Below are positions 34,161 through 44,993 of a DNA stretch of 44,993 nt, in pieces. The DNA is taken from contig JBBTSY010000005.1 in NCBI GenBank assembly GCA_038064515.1, forward strand, positions 3,100 through 48,092. Direction: 5' to 3'. A model generated the notes under the pieces. The model had not been told where the DNA came from. It ran no database searches and saw only the letters and a list, made by a program, of their open reading frames with translations. Both the position numbers and the translations under genes were made by a program. Positions within the stretch are counted from its first letter, which is position 1; every line of letters starts with the position of its first letter. This DNA is from Patescibacteria group bacterium. Its GTDB lineage: Bacteria; Patescibacteriota; Minisyncoccia; 2-02-FULL-40-12; GWA2-44-9.

Positions 34161-34628
34161 TTACTGATTTAAAATTTCCTGTTCAAGACGATCCATTTCT
34201 TCGGCCTCTTTCTCCGATCGCTCATGGTCGTAGTCCAACAGGTGTAATGTTCCATGCACTATGAGCCGTGCCAGCTTTGCCTCTATGGTCATATTTTCCT
34301 CTTTTGCGCGCGCCACGGCATACGAGGGACAGATGAAAATGTCCCCAAGAGTTCTTACAGTATATCCTGGAACAAAGGTTTCGCCTAGGGGAAATGAAAG
34401 AATATCCGTGACTTTATCGCGGTTTCGGTGCTCTTTATTGAGTTCGCGCATCCGTTCAGGACTAATGAGCGATACGCTGACCTCTGTATCTTCATTTACA
34501 CCAACGACATTGAGAGTTTTAAGGACAAAGGATTCGAAAAAATCCTTTGTTGAGATTACTCCGGTTGCCTGAGTCGTATTGCGAAAAACAAGATCCAGCA
34601 TGCAATATTTACCTGCGAGGAAATGCAT
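34161..34628 (-). CDS. ybeY: Endoribonuclease YbeY
   Basis: HGTLHLLDYDH zinc motif. The start may instead be the internal Met at 34601. Confidence 0.9.
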   Translation of the reverse strand: MHFLAGKYCMLDLVFRNTTQATGVISTKDFFESFVLKTLNVVGVNEDTEVSVSLISPERMRELNKEHRNRDKVTDILSFPLGETFVPGYTVRTLGDIFICPSYAVARAKEENMTIEAKLARLIVHGTLHLLDYDHERSEKEAEEMDRLEQEILNQ

Positions 34629-34657
34629 TAGCAGACGAGCAGTTTTTAAATATTCGC

Positions 34658-34684
34658 ACCGAGCACATAGATTATGTGCTCGGT
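34658..34684 (-). repeat. Hairpin ACCGAGCACATA..TATGTGCTCGGT plus a conserved flank, upstream of ybeY
   Basis: 12-bp stem. The same stem sequence and flank (GGTGC(C)GAATATT) occur at 35662-35704. Confidence 0.7.
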
Positions 34685-34739
34685 TAAATACTGACTAAAA
34701 CTGTACTCGACTCGCCATTGCTCGCCTGCGTACAGGTCA

Positions 34740-35228
34740 CTATATTAACTTTTCGAGTTCCTCTTTTACGATACGGCTGACAGCTTGGCCATCCGCTCGC
34801 CCCTTCACTTTTGGCATGACAGCGCCGATGACTTTGCCTGCCTGCGCAGGCAGGCCCATCTCAGCAATAACTTTCTTCACTTCGGCACGAATGGCGTCAT
34901 CGGAAATCTGTTCCGGCATGTATTGTATCAGAACGGCGAGTTCTTCCTGTTCCTGCGCCGCCAATTCCGGCCTTCCAGCTTGCGCATAGGTCTCAATCGC
35001 TTCTCTGCGCTTTTTGATTTCCGAGGAAATGACTTCAATGGCCTCTTCATCGTTAATAAGGCTCGCGTTTTCTAGATCGTTTGTCGCGCCCGCCTTGCTA
35101 AGCTTGCTTCGCTTTTCAAGTTCTCGATTTTTAATTGCGGAAAGAAGCGAATTTAACACGGTCCGCTTTTTGCTATCCCCAGCTTTGAGAGCTTCTTTTA
35201 CGTCCGACAAAAGTCTTTCCTTAAGCAT
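34740..35228 (-). CDS. GatB/YqeY-domain protein with a palindrome-encoded LPAQAG insert
   Basis: YqeY-like sequence. The palindrome 34836-34855 reads CTG CCT GCG CAG GCA GGC in frame. Confidence 0.8.
   Translation of the reverse strand: MLKERLLSDVKEALKAGDSKKRTVLNSLLSAIKNRELEKRSKLSKAGATNDLENASLINDEEAIEVISSEIKKRREAIETYAQAGRPELAAQEQEELAVLIQYMPEQISDDAIRAEVKKVIAEMGLPAQAGKVIGAVMPKVKGRADGQAVSRIVKEELEKLI
34836..34855. repeat. Perfect 20-bp palindrome GCCTGCCTGCGCAGGCAGGC inside a coding sequence
   Basis: Identical to 11821-11840. Confidence 0.9.
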
Positions 35229-35322
35229 ATGAGAAAGTAGAGAGTAGAAAATAGAAAGTAGAATTTTTCGAATGCAGCTGAATGCAACTTCTAAATTCTA
35301 TTTTCCATTTTCTATTTTCTGA

Positions 35323-35589
35323 TTACAGGTCTAATTCTTGTTTCAATTTGCGTTTTTCTTCTTCGAAGGTTTCTTCGTCGTATTTTCCAAGTTTTTCCAA
35401 GCGCTTGCGTAATTCGTTCAAGTGCAAGCCCATAATAGCCGCATTTTTCTCCTTGCGTTCATTCAGTTTCTTTGCTCGAAATTGGGATTTTTTCGCTTTT
35501 ACCAAAACTCCGCTTTGCTGTACAAAGCGGCTAAATCGCCTCAAGAGGCTTCCGGTACTTTCGTTTGGTTTTCTTTTTACTTCTACCAT
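35323..35589 (-). CDS. rpsU: 30S ribosomal protein S21
   Basis: I chose the start at MVEVKRKPNES (ATG at 35589), preceded by AGGAGGT. Small basic protein. Confidence 0.85.
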   Translation of the reverse strand: MVEVKRKPNESTGSLLRRFSRFVQQSGVLVKAKKSQFRAKKLNERKEKNAAIMGLHLNELRKRLEKLGKYDEETFEEEKRKLKQELDL

Positions 35590-35661
35590 ATTACTACCTC
35601 CTTTCTGTGAATATTCTCGATAAGGAAGCGCGCTAGCAGGCGAACTGCTAGAATATTCGGC

Positions 35662-35704
35662 ACCGAGCACATAATCATAAGATTCCTTCTGATTATGTGC
35701 TCGG
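35662..35704 (-). repeat. Hairpin ACCGAGCACATAATCA..TGATTATGTGCTCGGT upstream of rpsU
   Basis: 16-bp stem that shares its 12 outer bp with 34658-34684. Confidence 0.7.
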
Positions 35705-35748
35705 TCACGTGTTGTACTCGTGCTCGCAATTTTTCTGCACGCGAACAA

Positions 35749-36093
35749 TTACATGACTAGTTTTGGGCCTAGGCGTTTTCCGCCCAAAATATGAATATGC
35801 AAGTGCGGCACTAATTTACCGCCATACTCTCCTTCATTAAGCACCAATCGATAGCCACGATCCAATCCTTGTTCCTTCGCTACCTTTTCAGCGGTAAGAA
35901 ACGCTCGGCCCAATAATGCGGCATCCGTAGCTTGAAACTTTGCCAGGCTGTCGAAATGCTGTTTTGGGATGACTAATAAATGTACCGGTGCGGCAGGCTT
36001 GATATCCTTTATTACCATGAATTCGTCGTCTTGATAGACTGGGTCGGATTTCAATGCACCTCCAATAATTTTGCAAAAAACATCATCAATCAT
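35749..36093 (-). CDS. HIT-family (HinT-like) nucleotide hydrolase
   Basis: HLHIHILGG histidine-triad motif. Confidence 0.9.
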   Translation of the reverse strand: MIDDVFCKIIGGALKSDPVYQDDEFMVIKDIKPAAPVHLLVIPKQHFDSLAKFQATDAALLGRAFLTAEKVAKEQGLDRGYRLVLNEGEYGGKLVPHLHIHILGGKRLGPKLVM

Positions 36094-36102
36094 GCTAAGT
36101 TT

Positions 36103-37413
36103 TTACTTCTTTAAGCGTTTTTTTAATTCGTCAACAATCTTTTCTAGCGGGATGTTCTCCTGAATGCCGCTATCCATTTCCCTAAGTATGACGGTATCGT
36201 CAAGCGCTTCTTTTTGCCCGAAAATCAACGCATACTTTACGCCCAAGCGGTTTGCAATGCGTAATTGGGCCTTAATGCTATCACGGCCAAGCGATGACTT
36301 GATCTCAATACCCGCTTTTCTAACTTCCTCAAAAAGAATAAGGCTCTTGCGTTTAGCCATTTCTCCAAGTTGCGCCAGAAATACCTTTGGCTTGATACCG
36401 ATCTCTGGTACATTTACCTGTCCTTCTTTCAGCGCAGAGATAACACGCTCTATGCCCATAGCCCATCCCGCGGCAGGAGTTTTTGGGCCACCGAGCTGAT
36501 CTACCATGCGATCATATCGGCCACCGGCAATGACCGTAGATTGAGAACCGACATTTTCTTCGGGTAGAAACTCAAAAACGGTTCGGGTGTAATAATCTAA
36601 TCCTCGAACGAGGTACGGGTTGAGAATGTATGGGATCTTGGCTTCGTCGAGAAATTCAAGAACATTTTTAAAATGATTTTTGCATTCCTCATCTAGGTAG
36701 TCCATCATTTGGGGCGCTCCTTGAATTACTTCTTGGCATCCTTCTTCCTTGCAATCAAGTACTCGCAGGACATTTTTTTTAAGACGGATTTTGCAATTAC
36801 TACAGCTCTTTTTCATACGTGTTTTATAATAGTCCTTGAGAGCGCGGATGTACGCCGGACGACAGTTTTGGTCACCGATGCTATTAATATGGATATTGTA
36901 ATTTCCCAATCCTAGAGAATTAAGAATCTTGTATCCCAAAAAGAGCAACTCCGCATCAATGGCTTCGGAGCTATCCCCAAGTGTTTCAACACCCAGTTGG
37001 AAAAACTGGCGATATCTCCCCTGTTGAGGCTGATCGTGCCGGAACATCGGCTCCACATAATAGAGCTTCACGGGGTGAGGACGAACTTGCATTCCATTTT
37101 CGATATAGGCGCGCACGACCGCTGGAGTGCCTTCCGGTCGAAGTGCTAGGTCATCACCACCTTTTGTTTTGAAATTATAAATCTCTTTCTCAATAATATC
37201 GGTTGATTCCCCGGTCCCGCGCAAGAATAAATCGGTGAACTCTAAAACCGGCGTTGAAATTTTTTCAAAAGCGTAATCTTCGAGCAAGGATTCTGCTTTG
37301 CGCAACACATAGCGCCAATATTTCTGCTCTTCGGGAAGAATGTCGCGCATTCCCCGCGGAGCTTGCAATCCTTTTGGTTTCTTTATTTTCGTAGGTGTAT
37401 TAGTTTCCTGCAT
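36103..37413 (-). CDS. hisS: Histidyl-tRNA synthetase
   Basis: Class II aaRS with HisRS blocks (LRPEGT, GGGRYD-type AGGRYD). Confidence 0.93.
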   Translation of the reverse strand: MQETNTPTKIKKPKGLQAPRGMRDILPEEQKYWRYVLRKAESLLEDYAFEKISTPVLEFTDLFLRGTGESTDIIEKEIYNFKTKGGDDLALRPEGTPAVVRAYIENGMQVRPHPVKLYYVEPMFRHDQPQQGRYRQFFQLGVETLGDSSEAIDAELLFLGYKILNSLGLGNYNIHINSIGDQNCRPAYIRALKDYYKTRMKKSCSNCKIRLKKNVLRVLDCKEEGCQEVIQGAPQMMDYLDEECKNHFKNVLEFLDEAKIPYILNPYLVRGLDYYTRTVFEFLPEENVGSQSTVIAGGRYDRMVDQLGGPKTPAAGWAMGIERVISALKEGQVNVPEIGIKPKVFLAQLGEMAKRKSLILFEEVRKAGIEIKSSLGRDSIKAQLRIANRLGVKYALIFGQKEALDDTVILREMDSGIQENIPLEKIVDELKKRLKK

Positions 37414-37990
37414 CAGGATATGTTACTCGCGGAATTTTTGTAATTACGTCAAACGGCCATAGACGAATCCAAGCTCGCCCAGCGATAAACGAGCGATTCA
37501 ACGCATCCCAGCTTCGAGAATCTGAACTTTGAAGCCGGTTATCGCCCAAAACGAAGAATTCATTGTCGTCAAGCTTCCAGACTTTATTACCGTCGGTTCG
37601 TTGATAGTCAGCCAAATACGCTTCCTCCAAGATTTCTCCGGCCGGATTATCGGTATTGTAGATCGTTACCTTATTACCCTTTACTTGAATGGTTTCTCCA
37701 GGCAGACCGATCACTCGCTTAATAAAGTAGTCTTTGGGATCCTTCGGATAGCGAAATACGATCACATCGCCCCGTTTAAAATCGTCAAATCGATAGCTCA
37801 ATTTATCCACAAGAATATAGTCTTTATCGTGGAAATTAGGCACCATTGAGCTCCCTTTAACAAAAAACGGCTGGACCAGATAGTATCGTATTGGCACGAT
37901 AATAGCAAGCGAAAGAACTACTATTTTTACCGTTTCCCAGATGAAAGAAAAAAACTCGTCACTGAAGCGGATGGGTGTTTCTTCGTGCAT
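37400..37990 (-). CDS. lepB: Signal peptidase I
   Basis: GSSMVPN and GDNRLQSSDSR motifs. Confidence 0.92.
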   Translation of the reverse strand: MHEETPIRFSDEFFSFIWETVKIVVLSLAIIVPIRYYLVQPFFVKGSSMVPNFHDKDYILVDKLSYRFDDFKRGDVIVFRYPKDPKDYFIKRVIGLPGETIQVKGNKVTIYNTDNPAGEILEEAYLADYQRTDGNKVWKLDDNEFFVLGDNRLQSSDSRSWDALNRSFIAGRAWIRLWPFDVITKIPRVTYPDAGN

Positions 37991-38109
37991 AAATATTATT
38001 GCATTATATAAATAACTTCCATACTATATCACTAAATCAACTCCTTTTCAAACTCGCCGAAATCGAGCACCTAAACATAATTTATGTGCCACAACTTGGG
38101 CGGGCGAAT

Positions 38110-38139
38110 TTGCTTCGGTGCCGAAAAAAGCGCTATACT
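38110..38139 (+). promoter_or_regulatory. Candidate promoter of pth, about 11 nt before the start codon
   Basis: TTGCTT (38110-38115), an 18-nt spacer, then TATACT (38134-38139). The pth ATG is at 38150. Confidence 0.45.
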
Positions 38140-38149
38140 ATGGACACCA

Positions 38150-38740
38150 ATGGTTATAAAACTCATCATCGGATTAGGCAATCCAGACGCGGAATACGAA
38201 AATACCAGACATAATTTGGGATTTCTGTTTATTGAGTCCCTGGCCAGTGATCATGGGTCTGATCTCATTCTCGACAAGAAGATCGGCGCACGGGTCGCCA
38301 AGAGCAAGATGATCCTCGGCGGTAAGAATTATTCCGTGATTTTTGCCCGACCCGAATCGTACGTAAATACAAGCGGTCCTATTATTGTAAAACTCAAAAC
38401 CGTTTATAAGGCAAGGCCGGAGGACATAATTATAGTGCACGATGATCTCGACATTCCCTTTGGGAGTGTAAAACTTTCCTTTGATAAAAACTCTGGGGGA
38501 CATCGCGGCGTGGAGTCGATTATGAAAGCAATTAAAACCAAAAAATTCTTCCGCATTCGGCTTGGCACTGCCAACTCAACCCTCAAGAAAGCCTATAACC
38601 AAAGCGAGAACGCTAAAGATGCGTTAATTAAGAACTTTGTACTCGCAAAACTTACTCCCAAGGAAAAGGGAGAGCTTAAAAAACTTTTTAAAGACGCGAA
38701 AGATCTTCTCTCTTCTTCTGGCACTCAACTCGCCCGGTAA
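38150..38740 (+). CDS. pth: Peptidyl-tRNA hydrolase
   Basis: I chose the start at MVIKLIIGLGNPDAEYENTRHNLGF. Confidence 0.92.
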   Translation: MVIKLIIGLGNPDAEYENTRHNLGFLFIESLASDHGSDLILDKKIGARVAKSKMILGGKNYSVIFARPESYVNTSGPIIVKLKTVYKARPEDIIIVHDDLDIPFGSVKLSFDKNSGGHRGVESIMKAIKTKKFFRIRLGTANSTLKKAYNQSENAKDALIKNFVLAKLTPKEKGELKKLFKDAKDLLSSSGTQLAR

Positions 38741-38824
38741 ATCAAAAACCCCACCTTCTGGGCATATGACCTTTGGTACTTCCAAGGATCACGAGATCAG
38801 AAAGCGGGGTTTTGATTTGAGAAG

Positions 38825-39508
38825 CTAGTCTTCCATTTTGTGCTTAAGGCGCCCCACGAACTCTTCGGCGTGCTTGACGCCTCCGAGACCGAATGACAAA
38901 CCAAGAGCAAGTGAAAGAGCGGCAATTAATCCCATAATGACGATTCTGATGACATCGTCAGCAACACGCAACTGAACAAGAGCAATCAACATCGAGAAGA
39001 TGAAAACTGCCCACTTCGTCAACGAACCCAAGAAGTTCGACGAAGCCAATCCCGCCGTTCGGACTGAAGCACGAACCGTGCTTTCTAAGAATTTTGCAAC
39101 TAAAATACCAATGAGAAGGATAATGGCGGCAACTATCACATTAGGAATGTACAGAACAACCGTTCGCAAAAATTCACTAACTTGGTCCAAACCGAGAATG
39201 TTCGCCGCTGCCATCAAGAAGACGATAACGAAGAACCACTTCACGATTTCATAGAAAAACATGGCACTCGAAAGATGAAAACCGCTTCGTTCCCATGCTT
39301 CCTTGAGCCCTATCTTACTGAGCGCATTATCGATATGCAATACGCGTACCAAATGGTAGGCCAATTTTGCCAGAAGAACCGCGATTAGCCAGCCAACGAG
39401 AAAAACGATGAGAGCTGCGACAATTCGAGGTGCATATCCGGCAACGCCTGACCATAACGTGAGCAATGACGTACGTACAACATCTGGCGCTGATACTACT
39501 TCAAACAT
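38825..39508 (-). CDS. Membrane protein with repeated conserved TM helices (small MscS-like family)
   Basis: 227 aa with a repeated hydrophobic helix pattern. The family assignment is tentative. Confidence 0.5.
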   Translation of the reverse strand: MFEVVSAPDVVRTSLLTLWSGVAGYAPRIVAALIVFLVGWLIAVLLAKLAYHLVRVLHIDNALSKIGLKEAWERSGFHLSSAMFFYEIVKWFFVIVFLMAAANILGLDQVSEFLRTVVLYIPNVIVAAIILLIGILVAKFLESTVRASVRTAGLASSNFLGSLTKWAVFIFSMLIALVQLRVADDVIRIVIMGLIAALSLALGLSFGLGGVKHAEEFVGRLKHKMED

Positions 39509-39589
39509 AGTGCACCCCCTTTCGCCATATAGTAATCACTTCTGTATTTTAGCATGTTTTGGGGCTGACAAACATCAAAATGTGGATAA

Positions 39590-40327
39590 TCAATGAAACT
39601 GAACAACTAAAGAACCACGTGATCCAAGAGCTTCTTTTTGAACAATCCGAATAATAAGCGCTGTCGCCACCACGAGACCAGCGACGAACATGCCGACAGC
39701 GATATATTTCCAGATACGGGGACGTTTTTTAGTTACGAGAAGAAATTCCTTAGAAAGACTGTTGACGGTAGAATCAATCTCCCGTTCTGACTTTGTTTGG
39801 GCGATATCCTTAAAAGGGTCAGTGATAGCTGTGGCATCTTTTACAACTTGCTGGAAATAAGTGGCGTTAAAGAATCGGATAATATCATAGCGGCTCAATA
39901 CGCCAACAAGGATTCCGTTATCATCCACGACGCAGAGCGGGTTCACCCGATGGTGCTCGGCAAAAAGCTTAGCGGCTTCATCAATACTGACATTCTGCCC
40001 TATCGTCAGTGCTTTAGGATTCATGATCTGCTTCGCTTTGATTTCTTTAAGCTTATTGAAGTGTTCGTCCAGATCTTTGCGATCAGCCTGGTTTACCGCA
40101 ATCTGTCCCATAATACCAATGATCGTCGGCAAGTGCATACCTGAACTCTGCACGATCATATCGTACGCGGTGACGATGCCAAGGAGCTTTCTCTCCACAC
40201 CGATTACCGGCATGCCGTCATAGTCATATTTCTCAAAAAGCTGCGCTACGAATTCTAAGCTATCCTCGGCATTCAGCGCGAGGACGTCTTTTGTCATAAC
40301 GTCTTTTACCTTTGCAAATTCAACCAT
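39590..40327 (-). CDS. CBS-domain pair protein with a C-terminal TM anchor
   Basis: Two CBS-like repeats (VMTKDV..., GIVTAYDMI, GVLSRYDIIRF). Confidence 0.75.
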   Translation of the reverse strand: MVEFAKVKDVMTKDVLALNAEDSLEFVAQLFEKYDYDGMPVIGVERKLLGIVTAYDMIVQSSGMHLPTIIGIMGQIAVNQADRKDLDEHFNKLKEIKAKQIMNPKALTIGQNVSIDEAAKLFAEHHRVNPLCVVDDNGILVGVLSRYDIIRFFNATYFQQVVKDATAITDPFKDIAQTKSEREIDSTVNSLSKEFLLVTKKRPRIWKYIAVGMFVAGLVVATALIIRIVQKEALGSRGSLVVQFH

Positions 40328-40363
40328 AGGATAAGTGTACCAAAAATAGCCCCATAAGACGAG

Positions 40364-41386
40364 CTAAACTTTCGGCACATCGAGCTTCTCTACCTCTTCC
40401 TGCCTCCCTATTTCCACCACTGTTTTTACCCGTTCTACCATGAGGTCAAGGCGTTTTTCGGTTCCTTCGTAAGCACTGCTGGCATTTGAGATATGTTTCC
40501 CCAGTAAACGAAACTCATCAGCCAGTTTGGCTCCGTCCGTAGCAATGCGATCTAACCGCTTCATAATTTCGCGGGTTTGTTTATTTACTTCGACATCCTT
40601 AAACCAATGGTAGAGGGCAGACGTGGAAAGGAAAAACGTATTGGGAGAAACAATAAGTATTTTCTTATTGCGCGCATAGGCGGGAATGTCGATGTCTTTA
40701 ATATTATTAATGAGTTCGTAATACACGGTTTCCGCCGGTACATACATAATGGCAAGATCGGTTGTTCCCTCGGAAGGAAGAATGTATTTTGATGCAATCT
40801 CATCAACTTTTTTCTTCACATCGGAAAAGAATTGCTTTCGATAGATGTCGCGATTCATATCCGTTTCAGCGTTGACCATCTTCTCGAAGTTTTCCCAATT
40901 AAACTTTGAATCAATCGGTAGGATCAGCTGATTTGGTAAACGAATAACGGCGTCCACCACCTCACCAGATTTGAAATAATACTGCATCTGATATATATCT
41001 CTGGAAAAATATTGGCCCAGGGCGGCTTCCAATGACGCTTCACCCCAAATACCGCGCAACTTCGGCGACTTAAAAATATCCTGAAAAGAAGAAACATTTT
41101 TCACTGAATCCTGTACCTGCTTCACAGTCTCTTGGAGCTGGGTCATGCCCTGCGTGAAACTATGCACCTGCTGATGCACTGAAAGCGTTGCCCGTTCCGC
41201 AGACTGACGACCTGATTCAAGCTGATCGGTGATAAGCTTTGCAAATGAGTCCAGCCGCTGATGGAGCACGAGCGTATTATTGCTTGGCTCTTTTTTGCGC
41301 GATTGCAGTACCAGGTAGATATTGATACCCAGCATAATTAACGCCGCAACCGCAACGATGCCGATAAGAAGATATATTGGATTCAT
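40364..41386 (-). CDS. rmuC: DNA recombination protein RmuC
   Basis: N-terminal TM segment plus coiled coil plus an RmuC-type C-terminal domain (MYVPAETVYYE). Confidence 0.8.
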   Translation of the reverse strand: MNPIYLLIGIVAVAALIMLGINIYLVLQSRKKEPSNNTLVLHQRLDSFAKLITDQLESGRQSAERATLSVHQQVHSFTQGMTQLQETVKQVQDSVKNVSSFQDIFKSPKLRGIWGEASLEAALGQYFSRDIYQMQYYFKSGEVVDAVIRLPNQLILPIDSKFNWENFEKMVNAETDMNRDIYRKQFFSDVKKKVDEIASKYILPSEGTTDLAIMYVPAETVYYELINNIKDIDIPAYARNKKILIVSPNTFFLSTSALYHWFKDVEVNKQTREIMKRLDRIATDGAKLADEFRLLGKHISNASSAYEGTEKRLDLMVERVKTVVEIGRQEEVEKLDVPKV

Positions 41387-41388
41387 GA

Positions 41389-41479
41389 TGGTGGACTATT
41401 CTTAAAGTAGTTCGGACGCATTTCGCCGCCTGCGGCGGCGGGGGTTTGGCCAAAAATTCCGAACCGAAATCCTGAATTT
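41389..41479. repeat. attL-like site: 8-bp core TGGTGGAC plus 83-bp arm X
   Basis: Identical in inverted orientation to 42480-42570. The core equals the tRNA-Ala 3' end. Confidence 0.8.
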
Positions 41480-41512
41480 TGACAATTTCAAGTTTTTCTT
41501 TGGCGGCAAATT

Positions 41513-42379
41513 CTAGTTACAGAAATTTTCATTAAATGAAAATTTCTCGCCAAGTGAACGAAGGAGTTCGGGATAATCCATTTTACCAGAAGAGAAAGGC
41601 CCCTTACTTAGAACAAAGACCCTGTCTCCCTGAGTACAGCCGAGCAATAGGAATAATTCTGTATCCGGCGCGGGAGGTGTTGTCCTGTTCGATAGCAGTA
41701 ATGCCTGAACTTTTTGAGAAGATATGGTGACTACCTCTTTATTCTTAAAATTCCCAAAGAAACCACTTTGTGCCCACTGCAAATATTCTCTCGAGGCATT
41801 CCCGGCATCAAATTGATTTTTTGCAATTGTGAGCAATTTATCATCCATGGATTTCATAAATTGCTCTAATGATTGACCGTGTTGTTTGGGCAACACAACA
41901 GCATCAATTTCGCGAAGTAACTCAAGAACTGTGGGTGGCTCACCGAGGTAACCGAATTGATTTAATTTGTCGCTCGATGTCTTCGTAATTTCATTCCAGC
42001 GTTCAGGAGAAACAAGAGCATAATGAGCTTGTACACCAAATTGATCGTCAAGAAACCACGCTAGACCACCTTGGCCATAGAACAATTTGGAGGATTCCTT
42101 CTTAGTAACATCAGTGGGCAAATCAGCAATCGAAAATACTCGCCATGCTGGCCCTAGGTCAAGAGCTAGTTCCCCTAAAGAAAAATCTACGCGAACAGAC
42201 GAATTACCCACTTGATAGGAAAGTTGGTTGGGAAAAATTTTATTGGATTCTTTTTGTTTTACCCACCAATAAATTCCACCGCCAACAATTATGGCGGTCA
42301 AAATAACAGTAACAACTGTAACAAAAGGCAAAGAATTATTTTTAGGAGTAGGGCCAATCTGATTTATTTCTTGTTCCAT
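41513..42379 (-). CDS. Hypothetical membrane-anchored protein, 288 aa (element cargo)
   Basis: N-terminal TM helix. No motif recognised. Confidence 0.6.
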   Translation of the reverse strand: MEQEINQIGPTPKNNSLPFVTVVTVILTAIIVGGGIYWWVKQKESNKIFPNQLSYQVGNSSVRVDFSLGELALDLGPAWRVFSIADLPTDVTKKESSKLFYGQGGLAWFLDDQFGVQAHYALVSPERWNEITKTSSDKLNQFGYLGEPPTVLELLREIDAVVLPKQHGQSLEQFMKSMDDKLLTIAKNQFDAGNASREYLQWAQSGFFGNFKNKEVVTISSQKVQALLLSNRTTPPAPDTELFLLLGCTQGDRVFVLSKGPFSSGKMDYPELLRSLGEKFSFNENFCN

Positions 42380-42479
42380 AGTATTATGATTAAAAATGTT
42401 AATTTATGAAAAATTTTCTTTTCCCAAAATTAAAATGCAGTCCGAGCCGATATTTTTATCAGGTTCTTTGGCAGTTTTT

Positions 42480-42663
42480 AAATTCAGGATTTCGGTTCGG
42501 AATTTTTGGCCAAACCCCCGCCGCCGCAGGCGGCGAAATGCGTCCGAACTACTTTAAGAATAGTCCACCAGACAGGAAATTGCAAGCAAGGGGCATTCGC
42601 CTCGTTTTGCTCGGCGACCAAATCGTAAGGTTTTCTGGGCGAAAAAATCAGTTGGCGATTCTG
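42480..42663. repeat. Inverted attP-like junction: arm X', core GTCCACCA (42563-42570), arm Y'
   Basis: 42480-42570 is the reverse complement of 41389-41479. 42563-42663 is the reverse complement of 44073-44173. Confidence 0.85.
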
Positions 42664-42698
42664 CATTTTGGGAAAAGAAAATTTTTAGTCAAAGCCAT

Positions 42699-44195
42699 AT
42701 GAAATATATACTTTACGCTCGCAAGAGTACCGAGGACGAGGATGGGCAGATTTTGAGCATTGAGGCCCAAATCTTTGAATTAAAAGAATTTGCCGCCAAA
42801 GAAAAACTTGAAATTGTCGCTTCCTTTCAGGAAGCAAAAACTGCCAAAGAACCTGGGCGAATGAAATTCGCAGAAATGTTGTCATTGATTGAGAAAGGAA
42901 AGGCGGATGGCATACTTTCATGGAATCCTGATCGTCTTGCTCGCAATTCAGTAGACGGCGGGAAAATAATTCACATGATAGATCGCGGCTTGATTAAAGC
43001 GTTGAAGTTCCCAACGTTCTGGTTTGAACCGACACCACAGGGACTTTTCATGCTTCAAATTGCTTTTGGACAAAGTAAGTATTATGTAGATGCTCTGCGT
43101 GAAAATGTTACTCGTGGTATGAGGCAAAAAGTGAGAAACGGCGTTTGGCCAAGCAAAGCGCCACTCGGCTATCTCAATAATCCCAAAACGCGAGGAATTG
43201 ATGTTGATACCGAGAAAGCTTCTGAAGTTAAGAAAGTTTTTGATCTCTACGCCACTGGAAACTACAATCTCCGAGAATTAGCCGAGTGGTGTAAGCGAGT
43301 AAATCTCAAAAGCAATTTGGGCAATGACATTTCAATTGGAAAAGTCCATGAGCTTTTACAAAATGTCTTCTACCTTGGCCTTATGAAATACAAGGGCGAA
43401 CTCTACGAAGCCACTCACAAGCCAATCATTTCAAAGAAACTTTTTGATAAGGTGCAAGTAATTATGCGAGAAAAAGGTAAGCCGCAAAAAGTGAAGAAAC
43501 ATAATTTTACTTTTCTTGGACTTATGAAATGCCCTTGTTCGGCAGCAATAACCGCCGAAAAGAAGATCAAGCCAAGTGGCAGAGAATATGTTTATTACCG
43601 ATGCACAAAAAAGAAAGGCCCATGCCAGGAAAAGTATTTTTTGCGGCAGGAAGAATTGTATCAGCAAGTTAGATCATTTCTTCAAAAAGTTTCTTTGCCG
43701 AGCCAAGACACCGAAAAAGTTTTGCGCGAGCTGGAAAAAGAAGAATCGCAAGCGAAAGAACAAGCTAAAATCACTGTTCAAAATCTCAAAACCAAGTTAG
43801 CCGAAGTCGGGCTAAAATTGGAAAAACTTCTCGATGTGTATTTGGAAGAAACCATAACCGCCGAGGAATACGCCTCACGCAAAGAAAAACTGGTCAAGCA
43901 AAAAGTCGGTTTACAAGAACAAATCCGAGATTTTGAACAGAAAGGGTTGTCATGGCTCGAACCGGCTCGTGAGTTCGTTTTATCGTTAAATCAAGCCGCT
44001 AAAATGCTTGAGTCCGAAAACAAAACCGAGATGACAACATTTCTTAAAAATATCGGCTCGGACTGCATTTTACAGAATCGCCAACTGATTTTTTCGCCCA
44101 GAAAACCTTACGATTTGGTCGCCGAGCAAAACGAGGCGAATGCCCCTTGCTTGCAATTTCCTGTCTGGTGGACCCTAGCGGATTCGAACCGCTGA
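42699..44195 (+). CDS. Large serine recombinase
   Basis: Resolvase-type N-terminus (YARKSTEDEDGQILSIEAQ), a recombinase domain, a Cys-rich zinc ribbon (CPCS...YYRCTKKKGPC) and a coiled coil. The last 41 codons run through arm Y, the core, and the antisense strand of tRNA-Ala. Confidence 0.88.
   Translation: MKYILYARKSTEDEDGQILSIEAQIFELKEFAAKEKLEIVASFQEAKTAKEPGRMKFAEMLSLIEKGKADGILSWNPDRLARNSVDGGKIIHMIDRGLIKALKFPTFWFEPTPQGLFMLQIAFGQSKYYVDALRENVTRGMRQKVRNGVWPSKAPLGYLNNPKTRGIDVDTEKASEVKKVFDLYATGNYNLRELAEWCKRVNLKSNLGNDISIGKVHELLQNVFYLGLMKYKGELYEATHKPIISKKLFDKVQVIMREKGKPQKVKKHNFTFLGLMKCPCSAAITAEKKIKPSGREYVYYRCTKKKGPCQEKYFLRQEELYQQVRSFLQKVSLPSQDTEKVLRELEKEESQAKEQAKITVQNLKTKLAEVGLKLEKLLDVYLEETITAEEYASRKEKLVKQKVGLQEQIRDFEQKGLSWLEPAREFVLSLNQAAKMLESENKTEMTTFLKNIGSDCILQNRQLIFSPRKPYDLVAEQNEANAPCLQFPVWWTLADSNR
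44073..44173. repeat. attR-like site: 93-bp arm Y plus core TGGTGGAC
   Basis: Identical in inverted orientation to 42563-42663. The core is the 3' end of tRNA-Ala. Confidence 0.85.
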
Positions 44196-44241
44196 CCTCC
44201 TCATTGCAAATGAGGCGCTCTACCAACTGAGCTAAGGGCCC
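44166..44241 (-). tRNA. tRNA-Ala (anticodon UGC), CCA encoded
   Basis: Hand-folded cloverleaf with the G3:U70 identity pair, anticodon loop UUUGCAA and T-loop GGTTCGAATCC. Confidence 0.93.
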
Positions 44242-44252
44242 GTGGTTCCGTG

Positions 44253-44324
44253 TGGGCGACGAAGGAATCGAACCTTCGACCTCTGTCTTATCAGGACAGC
44301 GTTCTACCACTGAACTAGTCGCCC
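44253..44324 (-). tRNA. tRNA-Ile (anticodon GAU)
   Basis: Hand-folded cloverleaf with acceptor GGGCGAC/GTCGCCC, anticodon loop CUGAUAA and T-loop UUCGAUU. Confidence 0.92.
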
Positions 44325-44348
44325 AACTTGCCGTTAAAAACAAATGAA

Positions 44349-44377
44349 ACTATACCAAAAATGGCACGAATGATCAA
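44349..44377 (-). promoter_or_regulatory. Promoter of the tRNA-Ile / tRNA-Ala unit
   Basis: On the minus strand TTGATC (44377-44372), a 17-nt spacer, then TATAGT (44354-44349), about 25 nt before the tRNA-Ile 5' end. Confidence 0.6.
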
Positions 44378-44408
44378 ATTTCTAAGTTGATGAAAAAGCA
44401 GTTACCTC

Positions 44409-44437
44409 TTGTCAAAATTGAATGAATATTGTATACT
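44409..44437 (+). promoter_or_regulatory. Promoter of the uracil-DNA glycosylase gene
   Basis: TTGTCA (44409-44414), a 17-nt spacer, then TATACT (44432-44437). Confidence 0.6.
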
Positions 44438-44449
44438 GAAGTCACTTCA

Positions 44450-44993
44450 ATGACCGAACAAAAGAAACTCCAACTGGTTAATATTGCGCTTAAGAAAAAA
44501 TTTAAAGATAAAAATCTCGTGTTTGGCTATGGCGCCATTGATGCCCGGATCGTTTTTGTCGGCGAAGCTCCCGGCGCGGCCGAGGAACGCGAAGGCAAGC
44601 CTATTACCGGCCAATCGGAAAAACTTCTAAACCAACTCCTCCGCTCCATTGGCGTGGACAGAAAAAAGGTATATCTGACAAACGTCCTCAAATATCAGAT
44701 GTCAGCGACTAAAGCTCCTACTTCCAAAGAGGTTAAATCGCACGTACCTTTTCTGAAAGAAGAAATCAAAACGGTTAGTCCTCAAATCGTGGTCACACTC
44801 GGCAATATGGCGCTGAATGGCGTCGGCTTGCGTCAGCCCCTTGATAATATTCATGGCCATGTTATCAATTTCGGCCATTACGAACTCCTGCCAACCTTCC
44901 ATCCCGATAAGGCGCTTAGTGATCCATTGGTAAAAATACTTCTTCAGACTGACTTTCTCAAGCTCAAAGAACTCTTGAAAATAAAACCGGTAG
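44450..44993 (+). CDS. Family-4-type uracil-DNA glycosylase. The 3' end is cut by the window edge.
   Basis: Translated by hand. It has the GEAPGAAEEREGKPITG motif and a C-terminal HP motif. The frame is open to the last base, which is why it is absent from the ORF track. Confidence 0.8.
   Translation, partial: MTEQKKLQLVNIALKKKFKDKNLVFGYGAIDARIVFVGEAPGAAEEREGKPITGQSEKLLNQLLRSIGVDRKKVYLTNVLKYQMSATKAPTSKEVKSHVPFLKEEIKTVSPQIVVTLGNMALNGVGLRQPLDNIHGHVINFGHYELLPTFHPDKALSDPLVKILLQTDFLKLKELLKIKPV

Follow-up and report, generated by a model that had tools for sequence, protein, structure and literature searches.

A compact two-module large serine recombinase element with an internal inverted attP at the tRNA-Ala gene of a Patescibacteria bacterium

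We analysed a stretch of 44,993 nt from a Patescibacteria group bacterium (the whole of this stretch is called the window hereafter), in which positions 41389-44173, between the host gene rmuC and a tRNA-Ala gene, hold an integrated element. According to the list of open reading frames (ORFs), its gene content is limited to a cargo gene and a recombinase gene, without any gene for a directionality factor. The two genes are transcribed divergently, and an inverted attP attachment site lies between them. The ORFs were as described in an earlier reading of the sequence alone (the original prediction), namely rmuC, a gene for a protein of 288 aa, the recombinase and a short ORF at 42484-42666. In the recombinase we found a resolvase catalytic domain (PF00239, E 2.4e-21, residues 4-150) with a YARKS motif containing Ser10, a Recombinase domain (PF07508, E 4.9e-15) and a weak zinc ribbon (PF13408, Zn_ribbon_recom), which at 24.6 bits remained just below the cut-off of 25.3 and is recorded for many homologs. 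The protein is therefore a large serine recombinase (LSR). Among 8,000 scored proteins, 6,837 homologs were found at E<=1e-20, many of them 85-90% identical; few have a source name, and those named are mostly from Patescibacteria. An exact look-up of the window recombinase gave no match, although protein P0122 of the protein collection is identical to it.

The element is organized by two perfect inverted repeats. The 91 nt at 41389-41479, made up of an 8-nt core and an 83-nt arm (X), are the exact reverse complement of 42480-42570, and the 101 nt at 42563-42663 are the exact reverse complement of 44073-44173, which consists of a 93-nt arm (Y) and the core. Both repeats had been predicted and were indeed 100% complementary, including the left X arm (41397-41479) against 42480-42562. 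The core, TGGTGGAC, is the antisense of the tRNA-Ala 3' end GUCCACCA and is present at 41389, at 42563 (minus strand) and at 44166. A fourth copy, located inside rmuC (40952-40959, minus strand), is part of no repeat; four copies in the window compare with 0.62 expected by chance, and 0 shuffles reached four. The exact arms and cores identify site 1 as attL, site 3 as attR and site 2 as an intact inverted attP, in agreement with the original prediction. The inserted DNA separates rmuC from the CCA end of tRNA-Ala and has attL and attR as its outer limits, with the inverted attP inside. Across the family described below, identity between site 1 and attP begins within or next to GGTG.

The empty site was found in two JGI contigs (L098 and L099) encoding an RmuC 97% identical to that of the window, with a flank 97% identical to window 44167-44400. 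Their gene order is tRNA-Ile, tRNA-Ala and directly rmuC. The junction reads ...GGGTCCACCATGAAT, and the last A of CCA doubles as the A of the rmuC ATG; the empty site has the form GTCCACCA(TC)ATGAAT. Where the relative has CCATG, the window has CCATCATG, with 3 extra nt. The insertion in the window is therefore 2,777 bp long (44166 minus 41389). The predicted empty attB thus exists in a close relative, but the 2-nt gap expected between the CCA end and rmuC does not, the CCA end overlapping the start codon instead. Together with the LSR domains, the empty site confirmed that an LSR element sits at the CCA end of tRNA-Ala. In more distant relatives, 10 to 2,050 nt of unrelated DNA separate tRNA-Ala from rmuC, and the spacer is therefore an insertion hot spot. 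Sequences of the form TTGCTATCGGGACAATGAG recur after tRNA-Ala in L100, L114 and L119, together with partial tRNA 3' halves, and also border recombinase elements in the left flank of L016 and the right flank of L017. They probably stem from another element or are scars left at this hot spot.

Table 1. Features of the element and of its immediate surroundings (window positions).
Feature	Position	Strand	Remarks
rmuC	40364..41386	-	Pfam RmuC, E 2e-51; host gene on the attL side, outside the element
Core copy 1, TGGTGGAC	41389..41396	+	attL crossover region, flank/core/X
Left X arm	41397..41479	+	83 nt; P'-type half of attP; T-arm-like motif GTTCGGAC and GC hairpin CGCCGCC-TGC-GGCGGCG
Block B	41481..41514	+	Inverted copy of recombinase codons 29-40 (B'), reverse complement of 42785-42818; 3' end of cargo gene
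Cargo gene	41513..42379	-	288 aa; hydrophobic N-terminal stretch like a single membrane anchor (by eye)
Block C	42409-42430	+	Inverted copy of recombinase 5' untranslated region (UTR) element, reverse complement of 42665-42686
Block D	42431-42458	+	Inverted copy of the 28 nt before the Y arm, reverse complement of 44045-44072
Block E	42460-42479	+	Inverted copy of recombinase codons 46-52, reverse complement of 42836-42855
Internal complete attP, inverted	42480..42663	-	X' 42480-42562, core' 42563-42570, Y' 42571-42663
Alternative-tail ORF	42484-42666	-	60 aa; from the ORF list
Block C'	42665..42686	+	Recombinase 5' UTR element ATTTTGGGAAAAGAAAATTTTT; 100% identical in L009, L010, L012
Recombinase gene	42699..44195	+	Large serine recombinase, 498 aa; last 41 codons from Y, core and antisense tRNA-Ala
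B', hairpin h17 and E'	42785..42855	+	B' 42785-42818, h17 42819-42835 (GCTTCCTTTCAGGAAGC), E' 42836-42855; within the recombinase ORF
Block D'	44045..44072	+	Contains T-arm-like motif GGCTCGGAC; conserved island ATCGGCTCGGAC
attR (Y/core/tRNA)	44073..44173	+	Right Y arm 44073-44165, core copy 3 44166-44173
tRNA-Ala(tgc)	44166..44241	-	Target gene, intact after insertion; ARAGORN; Rfam 74 bits
tRNA-Ile(gat)	44252-44324	-	Next to tRNA-Ala

The whole locus was reproduced in ERZ1292619, a second assembly of the same groundwater well, whose contig L007 (152 kb) is colinear with window 34484-44993. Contig L001 of ERZ1292624 is colinear with the window up to 42888, where the contig ends, and includes the internal junction. 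Within the locus, the assemblies differ by 16 substitutions only, all located at 42688-42780, between blocks C' and B' (98 nt), whereas the remaining ~10 kb are identical save 2 sites. These substitutions, which separate the window from two other assemblies of the same population, fall mostly on third codon positions and turn the protein motif DEDG into EDDR. A diversity-generating mechanism was considered for them and rejected, since the changes are not adenine-specific and lie mostly at third codon positions; a related element is the more likely source of the cluster, through exchange of alleles or through cross-talk during assembly. Logan contigs (k=31) break at 41418 and 41485, which are the starts of repeats of at least 30 nt. 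Two Logan contigs with the cargo gene end at 42438 and 42434, inside block D, where the window has no repeat of at least 30 nt; population heterogeneity or a coverage drop may account for these ends.

We then looked at the element across species. Scanning one genome per species gave at least 572 relatives of the recombinase in species-representative genomes, almost all of them in Patescibacteria, and the best 80 of these, nearly all from metagenome-assembled genomes (MAGs) of Patescibacteria, were looked at as loci. Given enough flank, both inverted-repeat pairs had constant positions with respect to the start of the recombinase gene (44 loci). One copy of the Y repeat spans about -134..-34 and the other about +1372..+1472; upstream, a segment of 0.6-2.1 kb is enclosed by the X pair, and the minus-strand tRNA begins at about +1455..+1470. 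The two pairs usually overlap by 1-8 nt, corresponding to the core, which is 8 nt in the window, 1-8 nt in most of the family and up to about 17 nt where the arm ends are fuzzy. In 37 of the 45 loci readable on both sides, X' is on the left and the tRNA on the right, giving the order cargo module, inverted attP, recombinase and tRNA 3' end. The original prediction had presented this arrangement as a peculiarity of one locus. It is instead the conserved layout of a very large family, and the comparison indicates that the internal inverted attP belongs to the design of the family and is not a local accident. Arm lengths and the short blocks of the cassette ends are likewise shared by dozens of species, whatever the target tRNA and with cargo genes that are unrelated. 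A full-text literature search returned no description of the family or of its architecture; the coverage of this search was incomplete, so that this is absence of evidence only.

The elements of the family are inserted at genes for tRNA-Ala, Leu, Val, Lys, Arg, Phe, Tyr, Asn, Gly, Gln, Glu, Met and Ile. Alignment of the 44 loci gave the attP consensus ..TTGCAATTTCC-N4-TGGTG-SNN-TATTCTTRAANTAGTTCGAACGCATTTCGCC, whereas the attB consensus consists of TGGTG, the acceptor stem and then GGATTCGAACC, TGGTG being the antisense of C72-A73-C-C-A. On the tRNA side, 12 nt separate a motif of the TTCGRAC type (YYCGRAY) from the core (15/18 loci), compared to 17 nt on the X side (17/18 loci); the left X arm of the window likewise has its T-arm-like motif 17 nt off the core, compared to 12 nt in tRNAs. 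Within a locus the X arms are 96.5% identical and the Y arms 96% identical, compared to 67% and 70%, respectively, between loci, and the arms evolve in concert. Diverged copies are also present at different tRNAs of a single MAG (L030, L044 and L066; in another MAG, L047 and L051). These copies share 74-81% nucleotide identity with each other, and their own arms are 97-100% identical where the upstream flank is readable. L030 and L066 form a mosaic, being 95% identical over the 3' third and 82% identical over the 5' part.

As predicted, the recombinase ORF crosses attR, and the alternative tail foreseen for it is found in database proteins such as P0004, P0126 and P0127, in the form of the X-type tails described here. 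The closest homologs end in ...CLQFPVWW, a motif that is varied in more distant ones, followed by a tail that differs per protein. Most tails, such as TYRESNP, TRGELNP and TRADSNR, are encoded by the antisense strand of a tRNA acceptor and T arm. X-type tails (AILKVVRTHF..., CLLDEIRTFF...) are found instead in about 11 of 120 listed homologs; they are homologous to the X arm of the window and are encoded by ORFs that read through Y-core-X. A single protein cluster at 90% identity, which includes the window protein, contains both tRNA-type and X-type tails.

Alternative arrangements of the modules were also observed among relatives. In L094, tRNA-Ile and tRNA-Ala(tgc) are located directly upstream of the recombinase and in the same orientation, and Y-core-X-B follows downstream; both modules are therefore flipped relative to the tRNA, as expected from use of the other attP. 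L097 and L009, which come from different projects, have recombinase modules 99% identical and cargo modules 99.9% identical over 1,156 nt, and yet L009 has its cargo module upstream, in divergent orientation, and L097 has it downstream and inverted. On this comparison, the two loci appear to differ by a pure inversion of the recombinase module relative to cargo and attP. In L017 and L024, the recombinase module is located between tRNA-Ala and a diverged, convergent tRNA fragment, a pattern that would be expected if the internal attP had recombined with a second tRNA gene. The flipped relatives and the proteins with alternative tails thus indicate that module inversion, or use of either attP, happens in nature. 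A LAGLIDADG homing-endonuclease gene is present in L094 (5937-6689) upstream of the tRNA-Ile/tRNA-Ala pair and probably represents an rRNA intron in the adjacent rRNA operon.

The cargo protein of the window gave a weak, sub-threshold Pfam match to DUF5891 only and has 3 homologs among 5.8 billion proteins, one of which, 42% identical, is encoded by an ordinary chromosomal gene. Across loci, the cargo ORFs encode 127-369 aa and are mutually unrelated; judged by eye from the first residues, many of the N-termini look like membrane anchors and others like enzymes. Both ends of the cargo module are occupied by short pieces of the recombinase region in inverted orientation (blocks B, C, D and E), which had been overlooked in the original prediction. 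All four block pairs are exact inverted repeats, and the module ends are therefore tiled almost gaplessly, C-D-E forming the cargo leader (42409..42479, plus strand). In nearly all of the 44 loci the module interior starts with B and ends with C-D-E, although C, D or E was undetected in a few; B is at the same position in 42 of the 44, and block and arm boundaries are conserved to the nucleotide across the surveyed loci. Within the recombinase gene, nucleotide conservation is highest in B' (recombinase +92..+118), where it reaches 0.95 at third codon positions compared to ~0.6 elsewhere.

B' and E' are separated in the recombinase gene by h17, a 17-nt hairpin with a 7-bp stem that shows compensatory changes across 62 genes (stem pairs GCTTCCT/AGGAAGC, GCCTCGC/GCGAGGC, GCCTCTT/AAGAGGC, GCCTCCT/AGGAGGC and GCTTTGC/GCGAAGC). 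The X arms of the cassette occupy exactly the place that h17 has in the gene (B-t-X at one end, X'-E at the other). D' adjoins the Y arm in the recombinase gene but C' in the cassette leader. From the order of the blocks in gene and cassette, the two modules are therefore circularly permuted versions of a common backbone, in which C', the gene and B' are followed by the hairpin or the X arms, then by E' and either the recombinase body or 1 nt, and finally by D' with the Y arms or nothing. The contiguous spacer B'-h17-E'-D'-C' links the cassettes of L062, and the two cargo modules of L037 meet at a collapsed X'-X palindrome; such multi-cassette arrays are rare (3/87 loci: L062, L037 and L039). 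We also considered folds of RNA or single-stranded DNA that combine B/B', C/C', D/D' and E/E' with the arms, but the pairings cross and give no nested structure. Single-strand folds of B'-h17-E' and of the arms were not exceptional compared to shuffles (z -0.97, -1.67 and +0.42). The h17 stem, through its covariation, is the only fold supported. An origin of h17 as the remnant of a collapsed X'-X palindrome was not convincing, since only a 7-mer is shared.

Some further observations concern the arms and the recombinase gene. Within the X arm, the GC hairpin is flanked by an inverted pair, GTTCGGA ... TCCGAAC (41410-41464), and the T-arm-like motif is therefore present twice in this arm, in opposite orientations. 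Both Y-arm copies contain a terminator-like hairpin, GGGGCATTCGCCTC followed by GTTTTGCT (42590-42603 on the plus strand, 44133-44146 on the minus strand), one of them ~20 nt downstream of the tRNA-Ala 3' end. As a consensus match, this hairpin with its T run may stop transcription into the recombinase module from either side. Besides the tRNAs, Rfam returned no known RNA family in the arms. The recombinase ORF contains a 16-nt perfect inverted pair (43432-43447 / 43682-43697, plus strand). Both of its arms are nucleotide-conserved islands among 62 homologs, and the pair may thus be part of a long-range element in DNA or RNA. Another conserved island in this ORF, TGGCTCGAACCGGC, at +1254..+1267, resembles the T-arm motif. 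A phage origin was rejected, the only IMG/VR matches being two truncated ones (L127 and L128), located at contig ends and matching only the first 117 recombinase residues.

Taken together, we read window 41389-44173 as one integrated copy of a compact, 2,777-bp, two-module LSR element that belongs to a Patescibacteria-wide family, and we give this reading, including the mechanism that follows, a probability of roughly 60%. The recombinase would recognize the universal tRNA end, i.e., TGGTG (C72-A73-CCA) together with the T arm, with the T-arm-like motif as the putative sequence bound. Published structural work on serine integrases leads one to expect a 5-bp outward shift between attB and attP half-sites, and the X arm would accordingly mimic the T-arm motif 5 bp further from the crossover. 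Recognition of the tRNA end would explain why the elements land in many different tRNA genes. The free form would be a circle of 2,777 bp in which two identical inverted attP sites split a cargo arc from a recombinase arc. Either attP could recombine with the attB of the tRNA gene, and the other would remain inside the integrated element. With the 91-nt and 101-nt perfect inverted repeats at their flanks, each module could flip and leave every site as it was. Homologous recombination could bring this about, or the recombinase itself, should it be less strict than model LSRs; exchange between the arms would keep them identical. Flipping or re-integration would change the C-terminal tail and 3' UTR of the recombinase (antisense tRNA versus X), as well as the orientation of its gene relative to read-through from the tRNA. 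Inverted would be the sole orientation in which two attP copies are stable against deletion. Candidates for a selected role of the second attP are an operator or insulator of the divergent promoters, continued competence for integration, and module switching.

Several points weigh against this reading. The window-type orientation is dominant, unlike what random use of two equivalent attP sites would give, and selection or a mechanistic bias must therefore be added to the model. Model LSRs such as phiC31 are known to recombine attP only with attB unless a directionality factor is present, and attP does not recombine or synapse with attL or attR; since the element encodes no such factor, excision and recombinase-driven inversion are left unexplained. 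The available assemblies of the window population contain no alternative orientation, circle junction or empty site, i.e., one state only. The short metagenomic contigs L009, L095 and L097 come from communities with many related elements and may be partly chimeric. Finally, the model offers no explanation for blocks B to E or for the co-varying h17. In a further reading, which we consider unlikely, the family would be a cassette platform run by a serine recombinase, where the conserved spacer B'-h17-E'-D'-C', embedded as well in the 5' end of the recombinase gene, delimits cassettes that are captured or exchanged at the hairpin and the inverted attP pair is a functional 192-bp stem or a permanently active attP. 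If this were true, the integrated element would keep recombining with any tRNA gene, and cassettes would spread and chromosomes rearrange in Patescibacteria without an excision factor.

The original prediction preferred an inversion switch to an integrative element. In such a switch, the recombinase would drive a double inversion, recombining the inverted attP with attL for one module and with attR for the other. Reversible flips of the modules would be what is selected, toggling the tail and the expression of the recombinase and also the direction in which the cargo is transcribed with respect to rmuC and the tRNA operon. Both modules are indeed bracketed by inverted sites with identical cores, and by its logic an exchange of F/X with Y/X, or of Y/X with Y/T, restores the same site types. 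The recombinase-module inversion between the near-identical L097 and L009, the common occurrence of X-type tails in databases and the missing directionality-factor gene, which would fit a recombinase without strict directionality, point in the same direction; TnpX and TndX are recombinases of that kind. However, the required synapsis of attP with attL or attR is not made by model LSRs, RecA would also flip 100-bp perfect inverted repeats, one orientation strongly predominates across species, and no heterogeneity was detected in the window population. We thus regard the switch as possible but doubtful: both module orientations do occur among relatives, but the locus is certainly an integrative element. 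That the internal junction is an assembly artefact (a mis-join, a collapsed repeat or a library chimera) has next to no probability. This concern was raised by the exactness of every repeat, with several pieces near common k-mer sizes (20-34 nt), by the contig end at 42888, by the Logan breaks at repeats and by the 16 clustered differences at 42688-42780. A mis-join or chimeric patchwork is ruled out by the independent assemblies, one of them a second full assembly with the same order, and by the same architecture in more than 40 unrelated genomes of other projects and assemblers, with diverged sequence; in this respect the original prediction of a genuine junction was upheld.

Two other explanations for the inverted attP appear very improbable, to a similar degree. 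According to one, the inverted pair serves to form duplex in a single-stranded circle, in which pairing of Y-core-X with X'-core'-Y' gives a 192-bp stem that provides the double-stranded attP, and the modules form loops; once this folded strand had integrated, the other strand of the stem would be left behind as the inverted attP inside the element, following a logic like that of CTXphi or integron attC. This would explain why every integrated copy has an inverted attP, why ~190 nt, far above the usual attP, are perfectly complementary within an element yet diverge between elements, and why one orientation predominates, and conserved co-varying hairpins are found elsewhere in the element. On mechanistic grounds, however, serine recombinases cut all four strands, which would break the chromosome into hairpin-capped ends. 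Moreover, the element has no replication or rolling-circle gene, flipped states exist, and blocks B to E, checked by hand, extend the stem in no nested fold. According to the other, the locus is a fossil, in which a cargo-only satellite circle and a recombinase-only helper integrated in tandem (attL-M-attP-R-attR) underwent one ancestral C/C' inversion that left the internal attP as an inert relic, passed on to the whole family. When the segment between the 22-nt blocks C and C' is inverted, the window does become an exact direct tandem of two complete elements, and blocks B to E resemble rearrangement scars. A relic would decay, yet the internal attP is ~96-100% identical to the outer arms while arms of different lineages share 67-70%. 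Furthermore, the cargo was replaced many times on the same scaffold, the boundaries of blocks and arms are kept exactly, and members with degraded internal but intact outer sites were absent among the surveyed loci.

Patescibacteria (Candidate Phyla Radiation, CPR) represent a large share of bacterial diversity and have tiny genomes, with few described mobile elements. The locus studied here is one ordinary member of a very abundant family of minimal elements, which counts thousands of proteins and, in species-representative genomes, at least 572 relatives. With one hypervariable gene per element, the family may be a main route of accessory-gene flow in Patescibacteria. Current models of serine integrases explain none of its particular features, namely the internal inverted attP, the concerted arms, the gene fragments as cassette boundaries and the hairpin within an ORF. 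An attP that is active inside the chromosome, if true, could explain tRNA-gene rearrangements and contig breaks in CPR assemblies. In addition, a predicted serine integrase that recognizes the T arm and CCA end of tRNAs, with variants at a dozen or more tRNAs, would be of interest as a genome-engineering tool.

Compared to known systems, the element shows, as far as can be told from sequence, the testable defining features of LSR integrative elements. Like the integrases of phiC31, Bxb1, TP901-1 and A118, its recombinase has Resolvase, Recombinase and zinc-ribbon domains, the attachment sites share a short core only, the half-site motif is 5 bp further out in attP than in attB, and integration yields hybrid attL and attR sites. 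Unlike elements with those integrases, it is tiny, with two genes, and targets the CCA/T-arm end of many tRNA genes; its recombinase ORF crosses the crossover, no directionality-factor gene is present, and a second complete inverted attP is retained inside. Tn4451 and Tn5397 are generally known to rely, as this element would, on an LSR as the sole mobility protein (TnpX and TndX, respectively), with a circular intermediate and no separate directionality factor known, but they lack an internal inverted joint, a tRNA target and a single-gene cassette with conserved flanks. As in the Hin, Gin, Cin and Pin systems, inverted sites bracket a segment (that of Hin includes its own gene), and a flip changes the fused or expressed sequence. 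Those enzymes are small invertases (~190 aa) with a C-terminal helix-turn-helix, acting on 26-bp sites with an enhancer and Fis, and are not integrative, in contrast to the 498-aa LSR found here, whose inverted sites are attL/attP/attR hybrids. Similarly to integrons, single unrelated genes occupy a fixed slot beside the recombinase, with conserved boundaries, a co-varying hairpin and occasional arrays. Integrons, however, use the tyrosine recombinase IntI, whereas the enzyme here is a serine recombinase, arrays are rare and cassettes have their own leader; the hairpin spacer of L062 is at most a candidate counterpart of the attC sites that separate integron cassettes. Islands with tyrosine integrases that target tRNA genes also insert at the tRNA 3' end and regenerate the tRNA gene, but in those a long 3' piece of the tRNA gene is directly repeated, whereas 1-8 nt are shared here and the enzyme is a serine recombinase. 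Finally, elements of the CTXphi type, which use Xer tyrosine recombinases and a hairpin attP, are similar in the geometry of the inverted arms alone, the present element having a serine enzyme and no rolling-circle gene.

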